Positions 17,525-64,000 of a DNA stretch of 64,000 nt are shown piece after piece. Under the pieces are notes generated by a model. That model had not been told where the DNA came from. It ran no database searches and saw only the letters and a program-made list of their open reading frames with translations. How positions within the stretch are numbered: position 1 is the first letter of the stretch; every line of letters starts with the position of its first letter. Origin of the DNA: a bacterium (lineage in GTDB: Bacteria > Zhuqueibacterota > Zhuqueibacteria > Residuimicrobiales > Krinioviventaceae); NCBI GenBank assembly GCA_963693055.1, contig OY843751.1, positions 2,912,001 to 2,976,000 of the forward strand, written 5' to 3'. The position numbers were made by a program, and so were the translations under genes.

Positions 17525-18799
17525 TTATTCAATATCGGCAAGTATATAAGGACCCTTGGGTATAACCACTATTTTTGAATTTTCGCCATATTTTTTAATA
17601 GATTCTTCAATAGCTTGCTCTACTGTTTCTGCCCAATTGACATGTATACTGTCCTTTTGTTGGTCAGACAAGCCATTAGAAACCAGAATGACATTGGCTT
17701 TTCTGGTTACTTTGACGTATTCCTGAAATTGCCATTGATCAATAACAAAAAAGTCCGGTGTAAACAGCTTTTGGGAAAAATCATCCAAATCTTTAAATTC
17801 CTGGACCAACTCGGTAAAATGATCACTTCCCACTCCCTGGCTGCATTCAGAAGCAATTATTATCGTGCCCCCCTCTTTTACCAATGGCAGTGCAGCTGTC
17901 ATTCCTTTAATGGTTTGATAATATGTTGCATCCAGAGGATAACCGGCAGATGTTGTTATTACAATATCAGCAGGCTCCGGTATTGTATCCCGTACATGTG
18001 ATTTAACAAAATCAATACCTGCTTTATGAGCTGCGTCCAGTTCACCTGAAAAAATACCACTTATTTTTTTTTGCTCATTCAATGCAACATTTACAATAAA
18101 ATCAACACCAGCCATTTTTGCTATTTCTAATGCTTCTTCATGAAAAGGATTTCCCTCAATTACGCCTTCACGGGCATTTTCGTGGGACAATATCTCTGGT
18201 CCATGCATTACTTTGACAGTTTCAATGCTGGCTATGCCCGGTACTACCAGTTTACGACCTCCTGAAAATCCAGCCATGAGATGAGGTTCAATAAAACCCG
18301 TGGCAATTTTAAAATCTGCATTTACAAAACGTTTATCAATCCAAACATCGGTATTTTTACTGGTTTTACCCAAAAACTCGTGTGATTTAAGATTGGTTGC
18401 TTCATGGTTCTCTATATGATACTTGGAAGCAATTTCTTCCCCTACAAGTTCAATCAACTCATCACCCAAATTGGGACGATGAATTCCAGTCGCAATGAGA
18501 ATCAATATATCATCATGAGATAAACCAGCAGCATGCAAAGTTTTCAACAAGGGGGGTAAAATCAAACGATTGGGAACCGGTCTTGTAATATCACAAATAA
18601 GAATACAAGCGGATTGTTTCCCGCGTGCCATATCAAAAAAAGACCGATCGTATCCAATGGGTCTCAATAAAGATTTGGTAATTTCTATATAGGTGTCTGA
18701 TATGGGTTCTGAATCGGACATGGAAAGAATTTTTAACAGGTTTTTATCAGGTACGTCAACTTTTAATCCGGTTTTTCCATAATCCAATTGAATTTGCAT
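17525..18799 (-). CDS. larA: Nickel-pincer-dependent lactate racemase family protein (LarA/DUF2088)
   Basis: DITRP, ATGIHR, EPHLMAGFSGGRK..PG, downstream His, YQTIKG. Confidence 0.88.
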   Translation of the reverse strand: MQIQLDYGKTGLKVDVPDKNLLKILSMSDSEPISDTYIEITKSLLRPIGYDRSFFDMARGKQSACILICDITRPVPNRLILPPLLKTLHAAGLSHDDILILIATGIHRPNLGDELIELVGEEIASKYHIENHEATNLKSHEFLGKTSKNTDVWIDKRFVNADFKIATGFIEPHLMAGFSGGRKLVVPGIASIETVKVMHGPEILSHENAREGVIEGNPFHEEALEIAKMAGVDFIVNVALNEQKKISGIFSGELDAAHKAGIDFVKSHVRDTIPEPADIVITTSAGYPLDATYYQTIKGMTAALPLVKEGGTIIIASECSQGVGSDHFTELVQEFKDLDDFSQKLFTPDFFVIDQWQFQEYVKVTRKANVILVSNGLSDQQKDSIHVNWAETVEQAIEESIKKYGENSKIVVIPKGPYILADIE

Positions 18800-49339: not shown

Positions 49340-51103
49340 CTAACCGATCACTTTAAATCCCAACAAGGTTATATCATCACTTTGTGCTTCACCTTTGGTA
49401 AATTCACCCACTTTATCCATAATCAAATTGAGGGTATCCTGAATTTCCAGATTTTCATTCTGTGCCTGATGTAAAAGTTCTAATAAACGCCATTCCTCAA
49501 ACTCCTGCTCCATTCGATTCATAGCTTCTGTCACTCCATCAGTAAACATTAACACCAAATCACCTGAATTTAGTTCAACAGATTGGGTGGCATATTTTAC
49601 ATTCGGCATCATTCCTAACAACAGCCCCCCTTCATCAAGCTCAATACAAGTTCCATCTGTTCGCAGTAAATAAGGGGGATTATGTCCTGCGTTACAATAA
49701 ACCATTGTATTATTTTCTAAATCAATTTCCGCATAGAAAAAAGTGATAAACTTGTCTAAATTGGTATTAGCATAAATTAAATCATTTAATTTAGAAACCA
49801 AAGAGTTAATATCAGTATTTGTCATTAACAGACTGTGCAAACCCGCATGTAAATTAGACATCAATAATGATGCAGGTGCACCTTTACCAGAGACATCACC
49901 AATTGCAAGCGCAATTTTATTTTCATCGATTTTAATGCAATCAAAATAATCTCCACCCACTTCTCTGGAAGGGATATTTAATCCATTGATATGCAAATGA
50001 GAAGATTCAGGAAAAGATTCCGGGAGTAATCTCTGCTGAATCTCTCTGGCAATATTTAACTCTTCTTCCATTCTTTGTTTTTCAAGGGTTACATCGAACA
50101 GGTTTGCATTTTCAATTGATATCATTGCCTGGTTACAAAGTGTTGACAGGAAACCTATATCATCATCATCATATATAGCTTTATTTATTTTTTCACCCAA
50201 AAGCAGCACTCCTTTGGTTTGGTCCTGAATGCGCATGGGTATTACAACTTTGATATTATAATCACGTAATGCATGAATTTCTCGAGTTAAAACGGTTTCA
50301 TCAATTTTCATGGCTGACTTGACAGTTGAAAGAATCTTTAAGAATTCAGGATCCGCAAAACTAGTAACATCTTGAAGGGATTTTTCAGCCCCCTTGTATT
50401 CAAACAGTTCCAATGCATTTGTATTATCTAAAAAAACATAACAACGTGTGGCAAACATTTCTCCCATTATTGCATATATTAATAAATTGACAATTTTTTT
50501 CTTATCAAGAGTAGAGTTGAGTTCTTTGCCAATATCAAACAATGTATTCAACTCTTGAATTTTTTTATCTAATTTTTTATTTACTGTTAATAATTTTTGA
50601 ACAATTAATGCATTCTCTATAGCTGTTGATGCTATATTGGTAAGTAAATTTAAAAAATCGAGCTCATTTTTTGCATATGGGTTACCGGTTATCTTTTTAC
50701 CGAGTGCAAGAATACCTATTAACCGATCTTTAGTTTTTATGGGTAACAAAATCTCAATTTCAAGGGATTGAAACAATTCTTTCAATTTACATTGAGCAAT
50801 ATTGAGTTCATTCAATAATATAGGCTGATCGAAATGATATTCAATGGAATATGCTTTCCCAACCAGATCTTTATCCAAACCTTTTACAACCTGTATACTG
50901 AATGTTTTTTTATCATCGACAATTAATACCAATCCACGTGAAATCATCATTCTGCCCATAGGAGTGAGCAACAGATTATTTAATATGGTAGGCAGATCAA
51001 GAGAAGAATTGAGAATTTTACCTGTTTCAAACAAGGATCTCAATTCAACATGTTGCTGATCAATTTCCAAATGCAAAGATTTACTGGATCCAGAATCTAT
51101 CAT
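49340..51103 (-). CDS. GAF-GAF-PP2C phosphatase (RsbU-like)
   Basis: Two GAF repeats; GGDYFD, GDVSGKG, NAGHNPP, FTDGVTEA, DDIT. Confidence 0.92.
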   Translation of the reverse strand: MIDSGSSKSLHLEIDQQHVELRSLFETGKILNSSLDLPTILNNLLLTPMGRMMISRGLVLIVDDKKTFSIQVVKGLDKDLVGKAYSIEYHFDQPILLNELNIAQCKLKELFQSLEIEILLPIKTKDRLIGILALGKKITGNPYAKNELDFLNLLTNIASTAIENALIVQKLLTVNKKLDKKIQELNTLFDIGKELNSTLDKKKIVNLLIYAIMGEMFATRCYVFLDNTNALELFEYKGAEKSLQDVTSFADPEFLKILSTVKSAMKIDETVLTREIHALRDYNIKVVIPMRIQDQTKGVLLLGEKINKAIYDDDDIGFLSTLCNQAMISIENANLFDVTLEKQRMEEELNIAREIQQRLLPESFPESSHLHINGLNIPSREVGGDYFDCIKIDENKIALAIGDVSGKGAPASLLMSNLHAGLHSLLMTNTDINSLVSKLNDLIYANTNLDKFITFFYAEIDLENNTMVYCNAGHNPPYLLRTDGTCIELDEGGLLLGMMPNVKYATQSVELNSGDLVLMFTDGVTEAMNRMEQEFEEWRLLELLHQAQNENLEIQDTLNLIMDKVGEFTKGEAQSDDITLLGFKVIG

Positions 51104-51615
51104 TACTGTTCCTTGTTCTTGTCAAGTAATTCCGAATCCTGAGCATTTATAAAATATTTCACCATGGTCACCTGGTTGTTTTTTCCAGGATTAATATCAT
51201 AGACCACATCATCCATGAGTGTTTTCATTAAATAAATACCCAATCCACCTACTTTGAGCTCTGCAAGATATTGCTTCAAATCCGGAATTTTGATGGATTT
51301 CGGATCAAATCCTTTGCCATGGTCAGTAACGACAAGTGTGAACTTTTGATAATCCACTTTGATAACAATATCCAATGTACTGTCTTTGTTATCTTTGGAA
51401 TATGCATGCTTGATTACATTCGTACAGGCTTCGTCGCATGCAAGTTCAATTTTGTTCACTTCTTCTGCATCGAAACCAACCTTGTCGGCTACTTTGCCAA
51501 CGAATCCTCTTATTAACTCCAAATTGTCTGTCTGACTGGGAATACGAAGGGTATACACTCCCTCCAGCTTTGGAGCAATTGGCTGTTGTTTTTTCTTTTC
51601 AGCAGTATTTGTCAT
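51103..51615 (-). CDS. rsbW: Anti-sigma factor / Ser kinase (RsbW/SpoIIAB family)
   Basis: N-box DEACTNVIKHAY, G1 DHGKGFDP, G2 GGLGIYLM. Confidence 0.9.
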   Translation of the reverse strand: MTNTAEKKKQQPIAPKLEGVYTLRIPSQTDNLELIRGFVGKVADKVGFDAEEVNKIELACDEACTNVIKHAYSKDNKDSTLDIVIKVDYQKFTLVVTDHGKGFDPKSIKIPDLKQYLAELKVGGLGIYLMKTLMDDVVYDINPGKNNQVTMVKYFINAQDSELLDKNKEQ

Positions 51616-51633
51616 AACATTTCAACCTGTTAT

Positions 51634-51981
51634 TTAACTGTTAAATTTTTCAATAGCTTCTTCTTCAGTATCAACTATATCATATAATGTAGGAAAACCG
51701 AGAAGATCGAATACTCTGAATATTTTGGGAGTCATGTTGGACATTTTAATATCACCTTCATGATTTCTGATATTTTCAATAAAGCCCATAAACACGCCCA
51801 ATCCCGCGCTACTGATATATGACAATTCTTTAAAATTGACTAGAATTTTAAATTGCTCTGTATCGATAATCTTTTGGATTGCACTTTCCAATTCAGGGGC
51901 AGTATGCGCGTCCAAAAAGCCACCGATATATAAAACAGCAATTCCTCCTATTTCTTCTCGGTTAATTGTAAAATTTTCCAT
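51634..51981 (-). CDS. rsbV: STAS anti-anti-sigma factor (RsbV/SpoIIAA family)
   Basis: GFLDAHTAP, YISSAGLG phospho-Ser motif; start at ATG 51981 after GAGG. Confidence 0.92.
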   Translation of the reverse strand: MENFTINREEIGGIAVLYIGGFLDAHTAPELESAIQKIIDTEQFKILVNFKELSYISSAGLGVFMGFIENIRNHEGDIKMSNMTPKIFRVFDLLGFPTLYDIVDTEEEAIEKFNS

Positions 51982-52020
51982 TAATTCCTCCTGAATCAAT
52001 TAATATTTAAACGCTTGTTC

Positions 52021-54111
52021 TTATAAAACCTTAATCACAACAAATGTTAAATCATCTGTTGTGTTCGCACCATCGAAAAAAGTATAAATTTCGTGAATAA
52101 TCTTTTTCTTAATTTCTGCTGCGGATAAATGATGTAGTTGCGCAAAGGCTTTACCCAAACGTTCTTCACCAAATTCTTCACCACTTCGGTTTCTGGCTTC
52201 GGTAACACCATCCGTGTATAGTAAAAATGTATGTCCGGTTTTTAAGGGCATTTTTATCTGCTTTAATGTTTTCTCAAAAAGATTACCTGAATCCAATCCC
52301 ACACCCAATCCTGCAGGCTCTAGCAATTCATAATCAAATATACCGGTAGAAGCAAATAATATCGGACAATGGCCTGCTCTGCAAAAAGTAAATGTCTTTT
52401 TCTTGACATCAATAATACCATAAACTAGGCTAATAAATGTATTTCTATCAAAATTTTTGTACAGAATATTATTGGTGGGTATTAAAAGATTTTTTGGGGT
52501 TTCATTTGCCCTGGCAAGGGCTTCCATGATCCCCTTCACTTCTGCCATATAAAAAGCAGCTGACGGACCTTTACCGGAAACATCACCTATGACTACACCC
52601 AGGCGGTCATCATCAATCTTGAAAAAATCATAATAATCTCCACCCACTTCATTTGCCGTAATACAAACAGCATCTAACTCTATTCCCTCCAACTGCGGCA
52701 TATCTTTGGGCAATAATTTCATTTGAGCTTCATGAGCAATGCGGAGTTCCTGCTCAAGTCGCTCTTTAACGATAGATTCCTCAACCAGTCTGGCATTTTC
52801 AATAGCTACAACAGCCTGTTCACAAAATGCACGAAGCATATCTACATCATCAACTTCAAAGCCAAATTCAATTCGCTTTCCGGCATATAAGAATCCAATA
52901 ACCTTTTCATTGTGGATTAATGGTAAAACCAAAAGTGAGTGACAATCATGTTTCCACTTGCATAATTTCTTTGCAATAGGACTTTTTAAAGATTGATTGT
53001 TTAAAAAAGGCTCTTTATTTGTCTTTAACCATTCAGAAAGAGGATCGTGAAATGAAGGCTGCCTTCGTTTTAATTCAGAAGGTGAAAGATGTTTGGATGA
53101 AACAAGCTGCAATTCACTAGTTTTTGTGTCCAGTAATTCCAGCCACGAGAAATCAGCTTCTGTTACTTCAGTGGCAAGATTTACAATGGTAACTACAAGT
53201 TTGTTAATGTCGAACTCGGAACTCACTGCCCTGCTTAAATGATGAAAAGAAGAAATTTGTCTTATTTTTCTATCATACAATTGCGCGGTTGGCAAATGGC
53301 CCAGTAAAGCAAAAAAAGCAATGATAATATATATAGTTAAAAAGATAATACTTGAATCAACAAATTTACCCAATACAGGACTAAAAGAATACACCGGATT
53401 CAGCTTGTGAAACAAATAACCAAAATAAAACTGAATGGGTATTAAAATAAATCCACCCCAAAAACAGGCCAATTTCTGTTTTCGATTCAGATAATTGATC
53501 CAGGAAACTCGAAACGAGTTGAAAACCATCAAATTGATGAGAATAAATAATATTACATATTCCAGATTGTTAAAAAAGCCCTTGTCAAGCCACGAGAACT
53601 GTCTCAACGTTTCCGGTAAACTAAATAACGGGTATAATAACAAAAAAATCATCAACCAGGTAAAATTACGGGCTGTAGATTTTTTACGCTTGATATAAAT
53701 CAAATTACGCAAAGTGCCCAGGCTGATAAGCACAAATATAGTAACAAAAAATGTCCAGGATAACACGAAAATATAATTTCCAGCACTGGAATAGATCGCT
53801 TTATTGCCCTCATCAAAATCAAACAAAAAATCCAAACGATCATTGGAAATAATTAACAATAAACAGGTAAATAAAATTAAAAAGAAAAGCGATCGTAAAC
53901 CACGCAAAACATTTCTATCTGATGCCCATTTTTGTTTATATACGAGGGGTAAAGAAAGGATTAATGCAAAAATAATAAAATATTCACGGATATAGATAGC
54001 CGTTACCGGTGGTCCATCGCTCATGGCCATCATGTTCATGTCTTGCACTACGGCTGCAATAAGCAAGGCAAGAGGTAATAATAATGATAATTTACTGATT
54101 TCTTTCATCAT
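52021..54111 (-). CDS. Multi-TM-GAF-PP2C phosphatase
   Basis: About 8 TM helices, GAF, GGDYYD, GDVSGKG, RAGH, YTDGVTEA, DDLT. Confidence 0.92.
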   Translation of the reverse strand: MMKEISKLSLLLPLALLIAAVVQDMNMMAMSDGPPVTAIYIREYFIIFALILSLPLVYKQKWASDRNVLRGLRSLFFLILFTCLLLIISNDRLDFLFDFDEGNKAIYSSAGNYIFVLSWTFFVTIFVLISLGTLRNLIYIKRKKSTARNFTWLMIFLLLYPLFSLPETLRQFSWLDKGFFNNLEYVILFILINLMVFNSFRVSWINYLNRKQKLACFWGGFILIPIQFYFGYLFHKLNPVYSFSPVLGKFVDSSIIFLTIYIIIAFFALLGHLPTAQLYDRKIRQISSFHHLSRAVSSEFDINKLVVTIVNLATEVTEADFSWLELLDTKTSELQLVSSKHLSPSELKRRQPSFHDPLSEWLKTNKEPFLNNQSLKSPIAKKLCKWKHDCHSLLVLPLIHNEKVIGFLYAGKRIEFGFEVDDVDMLRAFCEQAVVAIENARLVEESIVKERLEQELRIAHEAQMKLLPKDMPQLEGIELDAVCITANEVGGDYYDFFKIDDDRLGVVIGDVSGKGPSAAFYMAEVKGIMEALARANETPKNLLIPTNNILYKNFDRNTFISLVYGIIDVKKKTFTFCRAGHCPILFASTGIFDYELLEPAGLGVGLDSGNLFEKTLKQIKMPLKTGHTFLLYTDGVTEARNRSGEEFGEERLGKAFAQLHHLSAAEIKKKIIHEIYTFFDGANTTDDLTFVVIKVL

Positions 54112-54135
54112 ATCCGCTTTTTTGTTCTATACGTT

Positions 54136-54163
54136 GATACGAATAAGCTTTTAAATAGTTACA
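54136..54163 (-). promoter_or_regulatory. Putative ECF-type promoter of the PP2C-rsbV-rsbW operon
   Basis: TGTAAC-N16-CGTATC in a 62-nt intergenic gap. Confidence 0.55.
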
Positions 54164-54173
54164 ATTATGTATT

Positions 54174-56558
54174 TCAAGTGAGTTTGAATACCAGCATAGT
54201 CATATCATCATGCTGTGGTGTAGATTTTGTAAATGCCTTAACTTTAACATTAATAAAATCCAATAATTCTTTGGCTGTAGCATCATGATTAGTTTGAACA
54301 ATTTCTTCAAGCATGGATTCACTAAATTCATGGTGATCTTTATCCATAGCTTCTGAAAATCCATCAGTGTATAGCACCAGAACATCGCCTTTTGAGAGAG
54401 TTATTGTTTCTTCAGCAATAATTTTTTCAAAAACAGGTCCTTTATCCAATCCAAGAGCTAATCCGGGTGGACAAATTGTTCGTGTTTCGTAATTGCTTTT
54501 AAATATCAAAGGATTATGGCCAGCTCTAGCAAATGAAAAAGTATATTTGTCTAAATCAAAGACACCATAAATCATGCTTATAAAATGACTTCTTTCAACA
54601 TTTTCATAAAACAGACTGTTGATTTCAGTTAAAACTTTTTTAGGAGAATAAAGAGTTCGGGTCAAAGACCGAATAAATCCTTTGGTTAATGTCATATAAA
54701 ATGCAGCAGAAATACCTTTACCTGAAACATCGCCAATTACGATGCCGAGTTTATTATCATTATATTCAATAAAATCATAATAGTCACCACCTACCTCTTC
54801 AGCAGGATAGCAGATACTTGCAATCTCTAAATTCTTGATATGTGGATGAGAACGTGGTAAAAAGTTGAGTTGTACCCTTTTTGCAATTTCAAGTTCTCTT
54901 TTTAGACGTTCTCGATCAAGAATTCGCTTCACATGTTTGGGTGTATATTGCACCAAATCATCTTTGCTTAAATCATTGCGAATTCCAATTAATGAACTGG
55001 TTGCCATTATAAACAAGATCAACAGAAAAACACTTCCTGAAAGTACAAATGCCATGTGTTCAAAATGAAACATGCGAAGTGCTTCAAAAGTTAGTAAATA
55101 TACAAAAAAAGTAGTCAATGAAGTTAAAAAATCATATTTCATAAAAATAATTACAAAATATAATCCGGATATATAATAAAACAATGCTATAAACCAGGTA
55201 GGCGATGCTACAATATCATTAGGATTTGATCGTAATGCCCAAAATATCGCAACAATGAGAACAATCCATCTTTTTTTTGCCAGAAATCTTGCAAAAAAGG
55301 AAGATAAAAATAAAACAAAAACAAATTGGATCCATAGGGTTTCAGTAATAATCTTGCTAATTCTAAACAAAAAAGGTGAATGACTATTTAGATCTCGTAT
55401 ATCGCTGCTATATGGTACAAAATCAATAAATGTGAATGATCTTGTAATTTTGAACAACAATATTGAAAAACCGGCAAAGATAATTCCCAAAGCGATTCCA
55501 CGCAAGACAGATGAACCGGTAAAAGGATTAAAAAGTTTTCGATTCGCAGCAAGATCAAAGCTGAACATTTTTCCGTTCCAAGCATCACGTGTAATAGCAT
55601 CAGCACACGAGACAACAATTACACATATAAAACCTGAAAACAAGGGTCCCAATATTAAACCACCCACCATTCTGCCTGTATCAATAGTTTGGGGTTGAAG
55701 CAAGAATTCTGACAAAACGGAAACAAACATTAAAATACCAAGGGGCAGAGCAGATTTGAGAGAAAGCTCATCATCCCTTAGTTTTTTTATAAAAATATAA
55801 ATAAAAGCACCACTGATAGCCAGGAACAACAATAAAACTGAAAACATCCGGTTCATAAATGAACCGTCATCTGCTATATTTTCATAAACATATTCATAAC
55901 GCCCCACCTGATCACCAATGAGATCAATTTCTATATTGACTGGGAGTTTAGCAATCTCACCAATACTGTAAATGACTGAATAATCTGTACGGGTATCCCG
56001 GGTTTGCTGCTTGATTCGTAAAAATTCGGTATGACTACCATATTTAACTAAAATTAAAGAATCTGCTATTGATTTGGCAGTTTCCTGACTTGTGCTTGCA
56101 AGTATGCTGTCTTCATAAGCTTCAATCCAAAACGATATTTCTTCTCCGGATTGATTGAGATTCAATCCTACCCTTTTTACCCAACCAGGAAAACCAGTAT
56201 TTAGAATAGCATTTGAATCTACAGAAGCATTGTCATTGGCCGTCCACATGATAGACCAATAGTACGCAGGCAGATTGTGGGACATATAGTATTCAACACT
56301 GTCATAATCAGTAAAATATTTACTGATATACCGAAGTAATCCTTTTCTAACCCTTAACTCGGTTACAATTTCATTTTCACCGGGAGAGTATCCCCATTCA
56401 GCCAGACTTTGTTCAGCGAGTTGTTCAATTTGATCTCGATTCAATTTGAAAGATAAATGTGCTGAAGGAAATAGTAAAGGATACCATGAAACAAGCAATG
56501 ATACGGCAATTACAGTGAATAATAGATATGCTATGGTTTTTGAATTGATATTTTTCAT
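54174..56558 (-). CDS. Membrane PP2C phosphatase with extracytoplasmic and multi-TM sensor
   Basis: N-terminal TM, soluble domain, multiple TMs, GGDYYD, GDVSGKG, YTDG, DDMT. Confidence 0.92.
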   Translation of the reverse strand: MKNINSKTIAYLLFTVIAVSLLVSWYPLLFPSAHLSFKLNRDQIEQLAEQSLAEWGYSPGENEIVTELRVRKGLLRYISKYFTDYDSVEYYMSHNLPAYYWSIMWTANDNASVDSNAILNTGFPGWVKRVGLNLNQSGEEISFWIEAYEDSILASTSQETAKSIADSLILVKYGSHTEFLRIKQQTRDTRTDYSVIYSIGEIAKLPVNIEIDLIGDQVGRYEYVYENIADDGSFMNRMFSVLLLFLAISGAFIYIFIKKLRDDELSLKSALPLGILMFVSVLSEFLLQPQTIDTGRMVGGLILGPLFSGFICVIVVSCADAITRDAWNGKMFSFDLAANRKLFNPFTGSSVLRGIALGIIFAGFSILLFKITRSFTFIDFVPYSSDIRDLNSHSPFLFRISKIITETLWIQFVFVLFLSSFFARFLAKKRWIVLIVAIFWALRSNPNDIVASPTWFIALFYYISGLYFVIIFMKYDFLTSLTTFFVYLLTFEALRMFHFEHMAFVLSGSVFLLILFIMATSSLIGIRNDLSKDDLVQYTPKHVKRILDRERLKRELEIAKRVQLNFLPRSHPHIKNLEIASICYPAEEVGGDYYDFIEYNDNKLGIVIGDVSGKGISAAFYMTLTKGFIRSLTRTLYSPKKVLTEINSLFYENVERSHFISMIYGVFDLDKYTFSFARAGHNPLIFKSNYETRTICPPGLALGLDKGPVFEKIIAEETITLSKGDVLVLYTDGFSEAMDKDHHEFSESMLEEIVQTNHDATAKELLDFINVKVKAFTKSTPQHDDMTMLVFKLT

Positions 56559-56950: not shown

Positions 56951-57523
56951 TTATTTTCCAGGTTCATTAAATATTTGAGCAGAAAAAATATATATGTCCG
57001 CATTTTGATCTTTCCAGGCACTCTTATTCAACCCTGCCTTTATACAGGTATGCTGCAAAAAAATTTCAACATTCCATTCATTTTCGCTAGCAACCTGTGG
57101 TAATAATAATCCTCGGCGATACCCCTTTTCAATATACAGCCCATGTTCACCAATGTGAATCTCGTCAATGTTGTTTAAACGCTGCATGGGAGTTAAAACA
57201 GATATTTCAATTTCCAAATCATCAACCTCATGATGTTCAACCGGATCAAAACGGGGATCACGTAATGCAGCAGCTTCTGACATCTCTATTATTGTTTCAA
57301 GCAATGGTTTAACTGCCTGCACATACCCTATACAACCACGGAGATGTTTATTTTTATGTAAAGTTACAAATGCACCAAATTTCTCCTTAAAAACCGGATG
57401 CTTCAAGTCGTCATTCAATATCGGACGCTGTTGATGGGTAACTGCAACAATAGCGTCTCTGGCAATTTGCAATAATATGTTTTGTTCTTCAAGACTTAGA
57501 ATATCTATAACCTGATTATTCAT
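56951..57523 (-). CDS. amrA: AmmeMemoRadiSam system protein A (AMMECR1)
   Basis: GAFVTL, LRGCIG, DPRF, GLLLPQVA, C.KAGL. Confidence 0.93.
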   Translation of the reverse strand: MNNQVIDILSLEEQNILLQIARDAIVAVTHQQRPILNDDLKHPVFKEKFGAFVTLHKNKHLRGCIGYVQAVKPLLETIIEMSEAAALRDPRFDPVEHHEVDDLEIEISVLTPMQRLNNIDEIHIGEHGLYIEKGYRRGLLLPQVASENEWNVEIFLQHTCIKAGLNKSAWKDQNADIYIFSAQIFNEPGK

Positions 57524-57547
57524 GATATTCTCCTCTTTATATAAATA

Positions 57548-59005
57548 TTATTCTTCAAAGACCTGAGTGTTATATACCCAGAATTCTGCTCCATCCTTCC
57601 ACGCATTTCGATCCAGACCGGCTTTTCTGCAAAGGCTTGACATCTCTTCATCAACGGTTTTCCACCCTGCTTCTATCGGAACTTCTGGTAAATACGTTGC
57701 TCGTTTTCCATCCTTTATTAATATAATACCTTGTTTACCCATTTTAAATTCCGAAATTGAATTGATTTTATAGACATTACTCAAATAAACAGATATTTTA
57801 ATATGGATTTTGTCAAATTCATCAGGGGTTAACGGTTCAAAACGAGGATCACCAAATGCTGCAGCAACGGCCATATGAGGAACCAATTCAATTAAAGGGC
57901 GATCAGATTCATGTTGTCCAATGCAACCTCGCAATATTCCATCAATGGTCAAAGTAACAAATACGCCTCTTTTCTCTTTCATCTCATCAGTTCCAGGCTT
58001 AAAAGAAGATAGTTTGCCAGTACGCATGTATTCCGAAATACTTTTACGGGCTATTTCAAGTAACTGATTTTGTGTATCACGATCAATCTCATTAAATTCA
58101 ACCTTTGCAGAAACCGCTTTTGAAAAAATTATAGCACCATAACCAACAACATACCCTTCTTTAACTCCCATAACATCATTAGAATTGGTTCTGCCTAGTA
58201 AACTTGCAGTATACTCACCCATCTGTTTCAATACAACCTGCATAATTACGACAGGTGCACCTCCACAGGCTTGAAAGGAATCATTTAACAAACCTTTACA
58301 CAAGCGCTCTGGTTTAAATTCCATGATCGCATCAAGTGTTTTTTTGTCTGTTTTCTTACATTCATTATAGGAATGTCCATGATATAGATCTGTGCTGGCT
58401 ACTATTAACACATTTTTATTTTGAATAGTATTAAAAATAGCGTCACCAATAGATTTACATTGCTCCCAATTAAATCCCCCCACAACAATAGGCACAATAG
58501 GAGTTTTTGGAAAAAGTTTCTGAATGAAAGGCAATTGCACTTCTATTGCATGCTCTTCCCTGTGCCCCAGGATAGATAATTGAATAAACTCACTTTTATC
58601 GGTTATATTTTTGGCAACAGACTTTTCTACCTTTATGCTACCCAATGGAGTTTCATATGCATCACCATTATATATAGTAGCCCCATAAAAAGGATCACGA
58701 TGACTGGGTGCCATTAGAATAATATAATCATAGGTATTCCCTTTCAGACTTTTGAATGCCTGCGCAGCGGTTTGAGCAGAAAACCGGTAACCTGCATGTG
58801 GAACCATAATGGCATTAATATCGCCAGCCGGCTTTTGATCGGGTTCTCCTGATAATAATTCATCCAATAATTCATTTAATTGTGATGGATCTTTAGGATA
58901 AAAACTACCGGCAACAGCAGATTTTCGGGATATTTCTGCAAAAATGGAATTTGAAAAAAATAAAAAGATTAGAATGAAAGAATAGACCTTTGTAAAGGTT
59001 TTCAT
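57548..59005 (-). CDS. amrB: AmmeMemoRadiSam protein B (Memo) fused to AMMECR1, with N-terminal signal peptide
   Basis: AVAGSFYP, PHAGY, EHAIEVQLPF, STDLYH, ACG, VGY; then GVFVTL, LRGCIG, DPRF. Confidence 0.92.
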   Translation of the reverse strand: MKTFTKVYSFILIFLFFSNSIFAEISRKSAVAGSFYPKDPSQLNELLDELLSGEPDQKPAGDINAIMVPHAGYRFSAQTAAQAFKSLKGNTYDYIILMAPSHRDPFYGATIYNGDAYETPLGSIKVEKSVAKNITDKSEFIQLSILGHREEHAIEVQLPFIQKLFPKTPIVPIVVGGFNWEQCKSIGDAIFNTIQNKNVLIVASTDLYHGHSYNECKKTDKKTLDAIMEFKPERLCKGLLNDSFQACGGAPVVIMQVVLKQMGEYTASLLGRTNSNDVMGVKEGYVVGYGAIIFSKAVSAKVEFNEIDRDTQNQLLEIARKSISEYMRTGKLSSFKPGTDEMKEKRGVFVTLTIDGILRGCIGQHESDRPLIELVPHMAVAAAFGDPRFEPLTPDEFDKIHIKISVYLSNVYKINSISEFKMGKQGIILIKDGKRATYLPEVPIEAGWKTVDEEMSSLCRKAGLDRNAWKDGAEFWVYNTQVFEE

Positions 59006-59069
59006 TTCAGACTCCCAACATATTTCATACTATAATATATTGAAATTAGGAAATATAACAAGAAAATTA

Positions 59070-60203
59070 TTATAGCCAAATACCAGCAATAGACTGTCTG
59101 CAATAAGAACAAGACCCATCAGCAATGTGGTTTTCAGTCACTTTGAAACCTTTACGTCCTACCAACAACTTGCCGCAGCCCGGGCAATAAGTATTTTCCC
59201 CTTTATCACCGGGGATATTACCAGTATATACAAATTGTAAACCGCTATCAATTCCAATCTGACGGGCTGTTTGTAAGGTTTTTACAGGTGTGGAAGGAAT
59301 ATTTTTCAAACGATATTGCGGGTGAAATCTGGAAAAATGTACAGGTGTCTCGGGCCCCAATTCAGCAGCAATCCACTTACACATCTCAGTTAGTTCGTTA
59401 GGGTCATCATTCTGTCCGGGTATAACAAGATACACAATTTCGGTCCACATATTGTTTTCTTTGAGTAAAACCAAAGTATCCAAAACCGGACGAAGTTCAC
59501 CAGATACCATCTCTTTATAAAAACGTTCAGTAAATGCTTTTAAATCAATCTTGACTGCATCCAACACTGTTAAAAGATCCCGCATAGGCTCTGGTTTGAT
59601 ATAACCATTAGAGATCATAACGCTTTTAATCCCCTTTTCCCGACCTTTAGTGGCTGAATCATACATGTATTCTGTAAATATGACCGGTTCTGTATACGTA
59701 TACGCAATGGATTTACATTGGTAAACCTCTGCAAGATCAGCGACTTTTTCCGGTGGCATATCATAATTCCGAATTTGTTCAGGACGAGATTGAGAAATTT
59801 CCCAGTTTTGACAAAATTTACAAAACACATTGCATCCGGCAGTTGCAATGGAAAATGCAAGGGTTCCAGGTAAAAAATGAGACAATGGCTTTTTCTCTAT
59901 AGGATCAACATTTGCTGAACAGGGTTTTCCATAAACCAGGGTATAATAAGTGCCATTTTGATTTTCACGTACCCCACAATACCCTCTCTCCAAATCATCA
60001 ATTACGCATTCACGTGGACACAATTGGCACTGTATTTTACGATTATCCAGTTTTTTGTAATATCTTGCTTCAACGAGCTTCAAGTCTTGCTTTATGTTGG
60101 TACCATAACTATTTGCAAATAAATCAAAAGCAGTCGAGCATGAACCAAAAGCACAAACTGAACAAGTGGCTTTAATGGAATCGCGTCTTGATATGTTTTT
60201 CAT
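59070..60203 (-). CDS. amrS: AmmeMemoRadiSam radical SAM enzyme with RR-containing N-terminal extension
   Basis: CQLCPREC, DPIEKKPL, GCNVFCKFCQNW, YTYTEP, HFSRFHP, CPGCG. Confidence 0.94.
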   Translation of the reverse strand: MKNISRRDSIKATCSVCAFGSCSTAFDLFANSYGTNIKQDLKLVEARYYKKLDNRKIQCQLCPRECVIDDLERGYCGVRENQNGTYYTLVYGKPCSANVDPIEKKPLSHFLPGTLAFSIATAGCNVFCKFCQNWEISQSRPEQIRNYDMPPEKVADLAEVYQCKSIAYTYTEPVIFTEYMYDSATKGREKGIKSVMISNGYIKPEPMRDLLTVLDAVKIDLKAFTERFYKEMVSGELRPVLDTLVLLKENNMWTEIVYLVIPGQNDDPNELTEMCKWIAAELGPETPVHFSRFHPQYRLKNIPSTPVKTLQTARQIGIDSGLQFVYTGNIPGDKGENTYCPGCGKLLVGRKGFKVTENHIADGSCSYCRQSIAGIWL

Positions 60204-61198
60204 AATTGAATCAATTCAATATTGTTCATATTATTGGTACCCAGTTTATGATCTCGATCTGCAGCTGTTTGAATATAAACTGGCTCACGACCAACCTCCT
60301 TTAATGGAGGAAAACCTTTTTCTCGTCTTTTTTTCTCAATAACGTTCCAGGCAAATGTATCCAATGCCACAGGATCTGTACCCAATACAAGACTGTTCAT
60401 ATTCCATGTCCATTGCGGCATAAATGGAGGTCCGCCCTCATATTGAGGAGTAATGGCATCACAAATAATGAGTCGGGTTTTATTTCGAATAATTGGCAGC
60501 ATATTTACATCCGCTACATAAGGATCACCAACATTATCATGATATTTATTGGGATTGTTGATGACACCAAAATTATTTTTCATGGCAGCACTGATACCTA
60601 CAATTCCGTGATCTTTCAGTATGGGGAGATTAATTATAGCTGAACATTGTTGTTCGAGTATAACAGAAATCAAGCTTGCTACGGCCCCATGTTCATACAA
60701 TTTACGTGAAAAACCGGTTTTATTTGATCCATAGCATTGGACTTTGCGTCTTCCCTGGTATAATTTGTAACCAGCCCTTTCCAGGTCACGATCATGGCGG
60801 TCCCAGATAATAATATGGTTTGCCGGAATGCCATTTTTTTTCAATTTCGTAGATATTGCTTCAACCAACTCTATATTTGTGGATAGACCGCGGCCGGCAA
60901 GGCAATTAACTTTTAATCCTACAATATCATCTTTTGAAAAGAGATGGCTCCACACATCATCAGCTGGCATATTATAAAGCTTGCTTATGCTGGAATCCAA
61001 TAACTGAGTAAGATTTTGAACAGAAATCCCCTGTTTTGACAATAAATCATCATGATTGGCGCAGACAATACGGGATTTAGTAGCACCTTTGGTAATACTG
61101 GGGTCGGCAATGGTGCTTGCAAAGAGTTGAGTGCCATGCAAAGCACCGGCTGCACCGGCAGTGAGTGTTGTATTGATAAATTCTCTACGATCAAGCAT
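60200..61198 (-). CDS. DUF362 domain protein with Tat signal
   Basis: DRREFI; VGLKVNC, NLPILKDH, AMKN, DPVALD. Confidence 0.88.
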   Translation of the reverse strand: MLDRREFINTTLTAGAAGALHGTQLFASTIADPSITKGATKSRIVCANHDDLLSKQGISVQNLTQLLDSSISKLYNMPADDVWSHLFSKDDIVGLKVNCLAGRGLSTNIELVEAISTKLKKNGIPANHIIIWDRHDRDLERAGYKLYQGRRKVQCYGSNKTGFSRKLYEHGAVASLISVILEQQCSAIINLPILKDHGIVGISAAMKNNFGVINNPNKYHDNVGDPYVADVNMLPIIRNKTRLIICDAITPQYEGGPPFMPQWTWNMNSLVLGTDPVALDTFAWNVIEKKRREKGFPPLKEVGREPVYIQTAADRDHKLGTNNMNNIELIQL

Positions 61199-61216: not shown

Positions 61217-61249
61217 AAAAAAACCGTGATCGGTTTGAACACGGTTTTT
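61217..61249 (-). terminator. Terminator-like hairpin
   Basis: AAAACCGTG/CACGGTTTT stem with U7 on the minus strand. Confidence 0.75.
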
Positions 61250-61273: not shown

Positions 61274-63649
61274 TTATCTCAGAAAACGTTCAACCAATTT
61301 TTTAAATCCGGTTTTAGTAAAATCCGCATCTGCAAAATAATCAGAAGCAAGTTGACTGCTACCCTGAGATGAATCAACCTGGGGCTCGGGATCAATTTCA
61401 GGGGGGTCCGGAGGTTCTGGAATATTAGTATTGAATACGGTTGCATTTTCAGGAGCAGTGTTATACTCTACATTTGATAGATCAGTAAATGCAGAACCAT
61501 TGCCACCGTTTTCTACTACATCTTCATCCGCTTCATCCTGGCTATAATCTTGAATATTATCATTTACTTCTGTAGGATCATTAAAAACAGATTTTGCAAC
61601 GGGTGGCGCAATAGATTGTTGTACGGGTTCAGGATTGTGCAAATGTGTAGCACTAATTACTCTCCGAGGTTCCGGATTTTTTACCAGTTGAGGTGTTTGT
61701 ATCTGTTCTTTAGCTTGAACATACATTACCCGGTTATCAATAGCAATAGCTATCTGATTTGCAAGAATTTCCAGTGTATGTAGAGTATCTTTGTTAGGCA
61801 TTCTGCAATCATTCGGATCATCTGCCATTAAAAATCCAATAATTTTCTCTTCCTTGGACTTTATGGGTACAATAACAACAGCCCAATTTGGCCAGCCACC
61901 TTCATAATACTCACCTTCTTCTGAGCCATAATAGATGCGTTTTAAATGATCAAATACGGGTTCCTGATTTTGAACCAAATATGATTTGCCTTGTAAATAA
62001 TCTTTTCGTAATAATTGACTGTATTCTTTGAGATTATAGTTTAATTCTTTGATCTGTGCCAGTTTAATCTTGTCATCACATGCTACCGCTTTGGTCTCCA
62101 ACATTCCACTCTTTTTGCTGATTAAAACCAAAGATACAAGGTTGAAATCCAGAGAAAATTTAACAGACCAGACAACTTCTTTAAGCAATTCACTCAAACT
62201 GTAATACAATTTAAATACATTACTATTAACGAGTATCTGCTTCATACGACGGTTGCGACGTTCTAGTGTAGAAATACGATAATAATTTTCCACTGTGACT
62301 GAAACTAACCGGCTAAAGAGTTCTAAATTATAAAAAGTGGATTTTGTAGGTGTATTACCTTCACCCGGTTCATCTAATGATATATAACCAAAAGTATTGT
62401 TGTTTTTATCTGCCAGATTCAAAATGATCAGGTCACGTTTATGCCATTGAGCAATGGGTGATGTTTCCTGAGAATCATTTTTAACCAGTTCATTGTTCAA
62501 ATGACTAGCCAGCTGACGGCGTTCTTTGTTATGATAAATCACTTTGATGCGAGATTTATCTGCAAATACTTTGTCAATAACACGTTGAGGAACTTCAATA
62601 TTTTCTTTTGAAGAGTTTTCTCTGACAGAATATCCTACCATTGCCTGTTTTACATATGCATGTTTACGAGGATCCAAAAGCGCAACTGTAGAGCGTTTAA
62701 ATCCAAAAACCTGGCAAACCAATTCAGAAAGATTTTTTAACAAAACTTCAATAGATTCAGAATAACTGCGATGAATGATATCAATTACTTCAGATATCAT
62801 TTGTTTTTGATCAACTGTCTTTTGTGTTATAAATGTACCGGATGATTTGACTTGTACTTTAACCAGATTTCCACGAAATCCAATAACATGATTTTTATCA
62901 TTATCATCATAAATAAGGGAGATCTGTAATTTTGCAGGATTCTTTTCACCGGTCTTTGCAATTACATATACTTCAAACGACATTGCCGGTTTTTTAATTG
63001 CCACATTGAGGATTTTGTTGAAAAAATCTGTATCATCAACTGATGAGAGCACATCATCAATGGTTAATTCTAATAATTCTGCGTTGGTGTATCCTGCTAC
63101 ATCTTCAATATATTCATTTGCTGAAAGAAAACGACGTTTACGATCACAAACAAAATAACCTATTTCTCCACTTTGTACCTGGGGTATATCTGTTTCAGGA
63201 TAAGGTGTAGACTCTGATAAATCTGCAATTGGCTGTTCATCCTGTACTGGCATAGGCTCTGGCAAGGGTTCGTCTGGGTGGACTTTAAACTCGGCTGCTC
63301 GTTTCAAGCTTTCGGATAAAGCGGAAAGATAGCCTTTCTTTTTGACAACAAATTCAAAAACACCTAAATTTTGCACATCCTGAAATATCTGCTCGTCATC
63401 TTCATTTACAGTCAAGATGGTTGGATGAATACGACTGATCTTTTTAAGCGTTTCCGTAAATGAATCATGATGTCCATTTGCCAGTTCACTGTCAATTAAC
63501 AATATATCAAACTCTACATTCGTAAACTGTTCCTGCACCTCCTGCAAAGAAGTTGCACCAATTGGATTATATTCATCATTTTGTACGCTTATGACCTGTC
63601 GGGTTGCTTCTACATATGAGGCATTCGGATGCGCTATTGATATTTTCAT
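61274..63649 (-). CDS. REC-PAS-GAF-GAF signalling protein without a recognisable output domain
   Basis: REC-like (DILLIDSEL, FVVKK), PAS (D...RFL.AN....GY...EL), two GAFs, acidic Pro-rich tail; start moved to ATG 63649. Confidence 0.8.
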   Translation of the reverse strand: MKISIAHPNASYVEATRQVISVQNDEYNPIGATSLQEVQEQFTNVEFDILLIDSELANGHHDSFTETLKKISRIHPTILTVNEDDEQIFQDVQNLGVFEFVVKKKGYLSALSESLKRAAEFKVHPDEPLPEPMPVQDEQPIADLSESTPYPETDIPQVQSGEIGYFVCDRKRRFLSANEYIEDVAGYTNAELLELTIDDVLSSVDDTDFFNKILNVAIKKPAMSFEVYVIAKTGEKNPAKLQISLIYDDNDKNHVIGFRGNLVKVQVKSSGTFITQKTVDQKQMISEVIDIIHRSYSESIEVLLKNLSELVCQVFGFKRSTVALLDPRKHAYVKQAMVGYSVRENSSKENIEVPQRVIDKVFADKSRIKVIYHNKERRQLASHLNNELVKNDSQETSPIAQWHKRDLIILNLADKNNNTFGYISLDEPGEGNTPTKSTFYNLELFSRLVSVTVENYYRISTLERRNRRMKQILVNSNVFKLYYSLSELLKEVVWSVKFSLDFNLVSLVLISKKSGMLETKAVACDDKIKLAQIKELNYNLKEYSQLLRKDYLQGKSYLVQNQEPVFDHLKRIYYGSEEGEYYEGGWPNWAVVIVPIKSKEEKIIGFLMADDPNDCRMPNKDTLHTLEILANQIAIAIDNRVMYVQAKEQIQTPQLVKNPEPRRVISATHLHNPEPVQQSIAPPVAKSVFNDPTEVNDNIQDYSQDEADEDVVENGGNGSAFTDLSNVEYNTAPENATVFNTNIPEPPDPPEIDPEPQVDSSQGSSQLASDYFADADFTKTGFKKLVERFLR

Positions 63650-64000
63650 ATTACCTGCTACTCCAATATAATTCAGCAAAAAACTCTGAAATTCACGAAA
63701 CAATTAACAAAAATTTGTACACATAGTCAAGAAAATAGATAATAAATACTGCCCGAAAAATGCTGTGATTACTTTTTGCCACATTTAAAAGAAAAAATAT
63801 ACAATTTTGGGTAATCGCAAATTACATTTTTGAAAAACATTATTTTCATCCATTTACTCTTGTTGATTTTTATATACTTAGACATAAAAATGTCCGGTTA
63901 TATTTAAAACAAAATTAAATCCAACAAACATCCATTTTAAAGCAAAATCCAAGCCAAAAAGAGTATTGACCCAAAAAAAAGCCAGAGATTTCATAACCTC

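Follow-up and report, generated by a model that had tools for sequence, protein, structure and literature searches.

The window analysed here, a 64,000-nucleotide stretch of a bacterial genome (contig OY843751.1, positions 2,912,001 to 2,976,000), contains an AmmeMemoRadiSam locus, that is, genes for the radical S-adenosylmethionine (SAM) enzyme AmrS, for AmrB (Memo), and for AmrA (AMMECR1), with export signals on several of the products. Four open reading frames (ORFs), all on the minus strand, encode a DUF362 protein, AmrS, a Memo-AMMECR1 fusion, and a lone AMMECR1. An earlier note on this DNA, made from the letters alone, had described this layout; its positions and quoted N-termini were reproduced, and the layout was borne out by family models. 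AmrS scored 410.7 bits with TIGR04337 (cut-off 220), the fusion 253.8 with TIGR04336 (cut-off 26) and 158.2 with TIGR04335 (cut-off 99), and the stand-alone AMMECR1 192.2 with TIGR04335 (cut-off 99). The ATGA overlap at 60200-60203, which the note took as translational coupling of DUF362 and AmrS, was confirmed. The components, clustered here, are clustered or fused in other lineages as well. The features of the locus are as follows:

60200..61198, minus strand: DUF362 protein (PF04015), 332 amino acids, with a twin-arginine leader
61109..61198, minus strand: approximate twin-arginine translocation (Tat)-type leader of the DUF362 protein (RREFI), residues 1-30, end predicted from the sequence
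59070..60203, minus strand: AmrS radical SAM enzyme (PF04055; TIGR04337, 410.7 bits), 377 amino acids, export-type paralogue
60114..60203, minus strand: approximate Tat-type leader of AmrS (SRRDSIK), residues 1-30, end predicted; homologue columns R6, R7, F9
59811..59834, minus strand: radical SAM CxxxCxxC motif of AmrS (C124, C128, C131), invariant in alignments
57548..59005, minus strand: AmrB (Memo)-AmrA (AMMECR1) fusion (PF01875 and PF01871), 485 amino acids, with a Sec-type signal
58937..59005, minus strand: signal of Sec type at the N-terminus of the fusion, residues 1-23, with IFA as its last residues, cleavage site predicted
57917..57931, minus strand: RGCIG motif in the AMMECR1 part of the fusion (C361), fully or almost invariant across 113 rows
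56951..57523, minus strand: stand-alone AmrA (AMMECR1; PF01871), 190 amino acids, without a signal
61221..61236, minus strand: hairpin resembling a terminator, located between the DUF362 gene and the GAF/PAS gene upstream of it, a consensus match only

Judged by pattern and hydropathy, by which all signals were scored, the export-type leader of AmrS is a family trait. A twin-arginine pair with a hydrophobic stretch was found in 112 of the 120 nearest homologues, and the consensus position after RRx was occupied in these by F (102), Y (5), V (2), L (2), or S (1, the gene in the window); two further homologues have RRxF followed by S or C, and the six lacking RR come from shorter gene calls, which start inside or past the leader. 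In a cross-phylum alignment of 41 sequences, R6 was kept at 95%, R7 at 98%, and F9 at 83%, and all other leader columns fell below 50%, save the start Met, L10 (59%), and C17 (54%). The best 12-residue mean hydropathy of the h-region was 1.24 here and 0.66-2.30 among homologues. The AmrS signal, which the earlier note had ranked as its weakest call, is instead among the best conserved features of the system, and the conservation of RR among orthologues, there left to a survey, held. SRRDSIK is the sole Ser variant among the 120 homologues, a same-genus relative having SRRDYLK. A Cys-rich h-region, considered as the mark of a false signal, was rejected as such because it is family-wide, with its peak 11 residues after the first Arg; Cys occurs there in 108 of 114 AmrS leaders, as against 70 of 112 for DUF362 and 69 of 150 for the Tat-like ORFs that this genome has. 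A true start farther downstream was set aside, given the leader conserved among homologues and the ATGA coupling, and a sequencing error behind SRRDSIK was likewise discounted because three runs carry no other letter, although they derive from one sample that is possibly the window's own source.

The genome, 6.5 Mb in one contig, with homologues labelled candidate division KSB1, encodes TatC (C1:1833766-1834386). Tat-like leaders were found on ∼150 of its 4974 ORFs, many of them of enzyme types that are usually cytoplasmic, so that export of such enzymes appears to be a habit of the lineage; by eye, many resemble sulfatases and sugar oxidoreductases. A tRNA-SeC is also present. Elsewhere, in the Acidobacteriota sample described below, eight loci (L254-L256, L260-L263, L269) hold a Tat-type AmrS subgroup with an extra segment between leader and core, which in some members contains a CxxCH-like motif.

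The other two signals that had been proposed were likewise supported. The fusion N-terminus has a basic n-region (MKTFTK), a hydrophobic h-region (FILIFLFF), and a small residue at -1 (IFA), with a hydropathy score of 2.71, and a hydrophobic leader was found in 102 of the 109 scorable homologues (four weak, three short; 11 of the 120 were not scored). The twin-arginine leader of DUF362 was kept in 112 of 120 homologues, with R4 at 92%, R5 at 91%, and F7 at 91% in 90 aligned rows. The exported fusion retains invariant H70, H102, D206, H209, and C247 in Memo and C361 and D386-R388-F389 in AMMECR1. The RGCIG motif around C361 is described in PMC2034487, where the cleft cysteine of AMMECR1 is proposed as an acceptor of an organic radical. 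Memo has a dioxygenase-like metal site (PMC7694686); a dioxygenase role in anaerobes is unlikely.

A second, leaderless set is encoded in the same cell. AmrS2 (C1:4897459-4898481) and Memo2 (C1:830674-831567) both have no leader and lie far from the export locus, and a third AMMECR1 was not found in the genome, leaving the lone AMMECR1 of the locus as the only one besides the fusion. The lone AMMECR1 would therefore complete the leaderless set, giving two full triads per cell, and the proposal of an export-tagged version alongside a separate cytoplasmic AmrA was upheld and extended. Among 20 paralogue loci in relatives, 18 yielded an ORF that could be scored; every one of these 18 begins 15-24 residues ahead of the first Cys motif. 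A second DUF362 with a Tat-type leader, belonging to a different subfamily (C1:4880215-4883805; L001), is encoded ∼15 kb away from the leaderless AmrS and is followed by a NapH-like membrane polyferredoxin (labelled by eye), a possible membrane electron route.

The catalytic core of the export-type AmrS was intact. Its CxxxCxxC motif was invariant in homologue alignments A1 and A5 and is common to leaderless AmrS, as are all 11 Cys and the DPIEKKP loop; the remainder of the core, with YxxP and K222, is also retained, and barrel positions 197, 217, 218, and 257 differ between the two groups. The predicted model (mean predicted local distance difference test, pLDDT, 89.9) has an open partial-barrel fold whose closest solved relative is the pyruvate formate-lyase (PFL)-activating enzyme with bound peptide (3cb8; E 1.5e-13, next family 4e-8), with a template-modelling (TM) score of 0.83 on the target and a root-mean-square deviation (rmsd) of 2.4. 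Scores with models of PFL-activating enzymes and other glycyl-radical activases remained below cut-offs (64.5 bits against 231.75 for the best, lower for others).

Fusions in other lineages independently support a location of AmrS outside the cytoplasm. Among 47 long AmrS representatives, drawn from a search of 1.84 billion proteins, P0394 has a single membrane helix and a flavin mononucleotide (FMN)-binding domain before AmrS, and P0401 is similar, with no Pfam hit for that domain; FMN-binding domains of the NosR/RnfG type are extracytoplasmic. In P0367, P0372, and P0382, an FMN domain, NosR-like helices, and an extra helix precede AmrS, and by parity the extra helix would put AmrS back on the FMN side. 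CcdA-like domains are fused to AmrS in P0368, P0372, and P0376, and P0363 and P0374 bear a Sec-type signal and a propeller or carbohydrate-binding domain; a lipobox-like leader was also seen. Leaderless AmrS is fused in P0484 to flavodoxin and an FAD/NAD reductase, the cytoplasmic equivalent of such fusions. AmrS was fused to both Memo and AMMECR1 in 20 of the 47. Separately, four leaderless AmrS (P0444, P0451, P0469, P0488) contain inteins immediately following the region of the radical SAM motif.

On an IQ-TREE phylogeny of 76 rows (selected out of 195 plus 10 new), the export label was clustered, with six changes compared with 25.6 when shuffled and none of 500 shuffles as low. FastTree grouped 47 Tat-type and 16 Sec-type or membrane forms, together with 17 rows that had no label, into a single clade of 80 (support 0.934); a strict single origin of AmrS export was nevertheless rejected, as the IQ-TREE result runs contrary to that single clade.

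The best-linked partner of export-type AmrS is not DUF362 but a protein that combines a major facilitator superfamily (MFS) fold with a SAM-binding fold. Its gene in this genome (C1:4281939-4284188; L157) is unlinked to the locus, 1.3 Mb away; before it, on the same strand, comes a gene whose thioredoxin-like product has a signal. With export-type AmrS assigned by score and leader coverage, both were found in 79 of the 133 genomes of the window's phylum, export-type AmrS only in 3, the partner only in 6, and neither in 45. The 3 AmrS-only genomes are 85-87% complete, and 4 of the 6 partner-only genomes have AmrS fragments; whole families have neither, as do two genomes (G010, G034) inside positive families, and the sole positive genome of one family (f15) carries the two genes side by side. 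In a sample of 101 Acidobacteriota genomes, taken from the phylum of an Acidobacteriota metagenome-assembled genome (MAG), the corresponding numbers were 34, 2, 3, and 62, the last including an unpublished genome (G164) on which nothing else here depends. In the 61 Elusimicrobiota genomes, filtered at 92% completeness except for the centre genome, the partner was present in all 15 with export-type AmrS. The partner thus accompanied export-type AmrS in 79/82, 34/36, and 15/15 genomes of the three phyla and stood beside AmrS in seven loci from other phyla, adjacency being seen in many loci overall; it is needed by the export-type AmrS system and is not exclusive to it.

The predicted model of the partner (pLDDT 88.7) is a 14-helix MFS fold whose two halves surround the SAM fold. 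It matched MFS structures over ∼340-350 residues (VMAT2, Z 24.9, rmsd 3.7, 340 aligned; SotB, Z 24.7). Residues 223-496 form a spermidine-synthase fold inserted between helices 7 and 8. The combination is shared with the known fused MFS/spermidine synthase proteins, from which the 14 helices in two halves around the SAM fold set it apart; one partner member passes the NF037959 model (43.7 against 40), and the member in this genome has no hit. From the alternation of basic residues (positive-inside count), the SAM fold is predicted to lie outside. GGGxGG, E316, and D348, which hold the adenosine part of SAM, are retained, and the acids of aminopropyltransferases are replaced (GGGLG for GGGEG, NVGxP for DLTDP), with N at the catalytic Asp column in 26 of 36 rows and L at the glycine-motif column in 19 of 36. 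Spermidine synthesis by the partner was therefore rejected, as neither the catalytic Asp of the DxxDP loop nor the glycine-motif acid is kept. It is likely a carrier of SAM or of what SAM cleavage yields, with a presumed direction of transport, and its service to export-type AmrS as a SAM carrier appears fairly probable. The need for exported SAM that the earlier note had foreseen has thus found a co-occurring candidate carrier. In Elusimicrobiota loci L328-L331, a beta-CASP hydrolase of the metallo-beta-lactamase fold with a Sec-type signal lies beside the partner, and no AmrS was found in these genomes; the hydrolase may be a second exported client.

In Elusimicrobiota, 13 of the 15 export-type genomes have Sec-type AmrS leaders, and TatC was not found in 11 of those 13; twin-arginine AmrS leaders were seen only in a TatC-positive genome, and one gene is incomplete. 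AmrS, a CcdA-like gene (the label was scanned for one locus), and the partner gene lie in a row in seven of nine fetched loci (L338-L344), with no TatC found. The Cys motifs of these Sec-type AmrS are largely intact, and if such proteins are exported unfolded, their clusters must be loaded outside. Such possible iron-sulfur loading after export in Tat-less lineages is the boldest reading of these genomes and depends on absence in MAGs. In the window's phylum, 13 of the 82 genomes that have export-type AmrS encode heme-copper oxidase subunit I, compared with 43 of the 51 that do not, which fits an oxygen-sensitive periplasmic enzyme.

Taken together, the locus is best explained as an export-tagged duplicate of AmmeMemoRadiSam that would be periplasmic, supplied with SAM by the unlinked MFS protein, and acting on side chains of envelope proteins, a composite reading to which we give about an even chance. 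Its periplasmic location is very likely on the evidence of leaders and fusions; a protein substrate is preferred only tentatively, at somewhat below even chances. In general terms, the system is probably a periplasmic radical SAM machine of mostly anaerobic bacteria that acts on envelope proteins. AmrS, folded and with its clusters loaded, would in all likelihood cross by Tat, and the Memo-AMMECR1 fusion would leave by Sec. The 14-helix protein would then, with reasonable probability, move SAM out and/or 5'-deoxyadenosine back and present it on the outer face, and a membrane electron route (an FMN-binding/NosR-like or CcdA-like protein) would reduce the cluster, with DUF362 as an accessory rather than the donor. 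In a tentative final step, AmrS might cleave SAM once per turnover and take a hydrogen from a polypeptide-borne group entering the open barrel, as the PFL-activating enzyme does, after which the AMMECR1 cysteine would capture the group and the Memo metal site would release it. The outcome would be the repair or modification of an envelope-protein side chain, and the leaderless set would do the same job in the cytoplasm. Because the job would exist in both compartments and depend on a standing SAM supply, repeated repair or modification of protein side chains is a better fit than the modification of RNA bases. Peptide processing has been tied to a related radical SAM domain (PMC7159879). A bolder and rather doubtful extension is that many anaerobes sustain periplasmic radical SAM catalysis through a dedicated SAM exporter (an MFS channel topped by a lid that binds SAM) and electrons wired through the membrane, and that in Tat-less lineages Sec exports the enzyme unfolded, next to a CcdA-like reductant, so that its [4Fe-4S] clusters are assembled outside.

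Several observations weigh against this interpretation. AmrS in the window has Ser where Tat signals want Phe, which 131 of the 150 Tat-like ORFs have, and export may be weaker in this strain. Its genome is one of the 13 exceptions with a heme-copper oxidase, so the periplasm may see oxygen. The likeness to the PFL-activating enzyme is a fold match at 17% identity and no proof of a protein substrate. Four Sec-type or membrane AmrS forms branch with leaderless ones in IQ-TREE, with a deep support of 88. The genomes compared are related, so that the co-occurrence counts overstate independence, and the partner is also present in 16 of the 46 Elusimicrobiota genomes without export-type AmrS (two with an AmrS fragment) and adjoins a signal-bearing beta-CASP hydrolase in four fetched loci.

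The main rival to a protein substrate keeps the system in the periplasm and has it act on a small molecule (nucleoside, nucleotide, or cofactor) or an outer-leaflet isoprenoid lipid, with the MFS protein importing a nucleoside-type product rather than exporting SAM. Burroughs et al. 2019 are said to have proposed an isoprenoid modification. This alternative, which we consider unlikely though worth weighing, draws on the nucleic-acid/nucleotide-binding fold of AMMECR1, for which base modification was predicted (PMC2034487), and on the origin of Memo in the nucleoside phosphorylase/hydrolase fold lineage (PMC7694686). That the MFS-SAM-fold transporter pairs with a beta-CASP hydrolase in the absence of AmrS also favours it, as does an MtnA-like (IF-2B family) gene before DUF362 in three Zixibacteria loci (L019, L021, L022). 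Against these points, AmrS is closest to protein-activating enzymes, and no substrate-binding protein, porin, or catabolic gene recurred beside the operon among the clustered loci. A homocysteine S-methyltransferase gene lies near the operon in one family of relatives (L011, L014, L016, L017, and others); like the MtnA-like gene, it is a SAM-cycle gene whose presence near the operon may be plain synteny.

DUF362 had been proposed as the electron donor of the exported AmrS, and its translational coupling, its own Tat leader (suggesting a bound cofactor), and three Cys at 94% would suit that role, as would the occasional nitroreductase-family gene beside AmrS where DUF362 is missing, a possible functional swap. 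The proposal nevertheless fared poorly and now appears improbable. Across the 82 genomes of the window's phylum with export-type AmrS, DUF362 is present in 51 and missing from 31, including whole families. A CxxCxxC ferredoxin motif was found in none of the 90 aligned members, which is compatible with another type of redox centre; only three to four Cys are conserved, and K96, H197, K207, H220, and a D247-like residue look like an enzyme site. DUF362 belongs to the clan of the lactate racemase LarA and DUF2088 (CL0471; PMC11770544). The H-x9-K spacing of LarA is visible by eye as H197 and K207, whereas hhalign gave no profile match to one LarA sequence, the LarA-like protein of the window. No relative with a solved structure was found by sequence search, and an Atlas search returned unnamed clusters only. 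DUF362 is probably a cofactor-bearing accessory enzyme and is an optional member of the system. Downstream of the LarA-like racemase gene of the window (17525-18799) are genes for a ferritin-like protein and an IscS-like cysteine desulfurase (both labelled by eye), and the nickel insertase LarC was not found in the genome, despite three LarA-like genes. In six loci (L276, L277, L281, L285, L289, L345), a nitroreductase/SagB-family gene, often signal-bearing, lies beside export-type AmrS, mostly without this DUF362.

Radical SAM enzymes are taken to be cytoplasmic, needing SAM and a low-potential reductant, both found in the cytoplasm, and protection from oxygen. AmrS might accordingly stay inside, for instance to mature Memo-AMMECR1 before export, with its leader a tether or a relic, and the degenerate motif in the window and the difficulty of loading clusters outside onto Sec-type AmrS in TatC-less genomes would agree with this. 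Such an arrangement has little probability, however: RR-x-F is kept at 83-98% across phyla; the leader is replaced by Sec, lipobox-like, or FMN-domain fusions rather than lost; a leaderless AmrS is already present in each genome; and the co-occurring SAM fold is predicted outside. An exported AmrS devoid of radical chemistry, which within a periplasmic complex would provide an iron-sulfur or zinc subunit for redox or sensing, would suit the fusions to electron-transfer membrane domains and the few barrel positions that differ, but is very improbable given that CxxxCxxC, YxxP, K222, and the core are kept, also in Sec-type forms, and that a SAM-binding partner accompanies AmrS.

The flanks of the locus (49340-56558 and 61274-63703) hold three PP2C/SpoIIE-type phosphatase genes, anti-sigma and anti-anti-sigma genes, and a receiver-PAS-GAF gene. 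The SpoIIE/anti-sigma and GAF genes were rejected as members of the system, being kept only in the window's order and near kin and not in other phyla. Seven terminator-like sites were found where 4.7 were expected, so the hairpin at 61221..61236 is not significant by itself.

A literature search, whose scope lay outside the main comparative Memo-context paper (Burroughs et al. 2019) and all supplements, returned no example of a periplasmic radical SAM enzyme and no exported AmmeMemoRadiSam. The present analysis adds the unlinked co-occurrence, at genome level, with the MFS-SAM-fold protein in three phyla; the fold and topology of that protein and its loss of catalytic residues; the status of DUF362 as optional; the switch to Sec where TatC was not found; and an association with anaerobic lineages. 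If the system does work outside, the envelope would hold a SAM pool and probably a SAM exporter, and Tat-less lineages would possibly load iron-sulfur clusters after export. Memo and AMMECR1 both have human homologues, and the question of their role would be narrowed, with a job on both sides of the membrane making modification of cellular RNA unlikely and the periplasmic version offering a small, separable compartment for a substrate hunt.

Among known systems, NosR/RnfG-type and CcdA/DsbD proteins serve N2O reductase or thiol reduction; such domains are not present at this locus and are fused to or beside export-type AmrS in other lineages, where a radical SAM enzyme is likely their client. 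The PFL-activating enzyme is the best structural match and the best other NCBIfam hit of AmrS, which differs from it in its extra N- and C-terminal Cys sites, its DPIEKKP loop, and its export leader; unlike glycyl-radical activase systems, the operon has no glycyl-radical enzyme. By every testable feature, the system is a member of AmmeMemoRadiSam, with three models above cut-offs, intact catalytic motifs, and clustered genes, and its location and partners were not found in the literature searched. The linkage of AMMECR1, a radical SAM enzyme, and a dioxygenase-like protein was described in PMC2034487, and the published prediction of RNA base modification assumes a cytoplasmic system. In contrast to that standard form, the version described here bears export signals on AmrS and the AmrB-AmrA fusion, runs in parallel with a leaderless set in the same cell, and has added partners in the MFS-SAM-fold protein, the optional DUF362, and membrane electron carriers.

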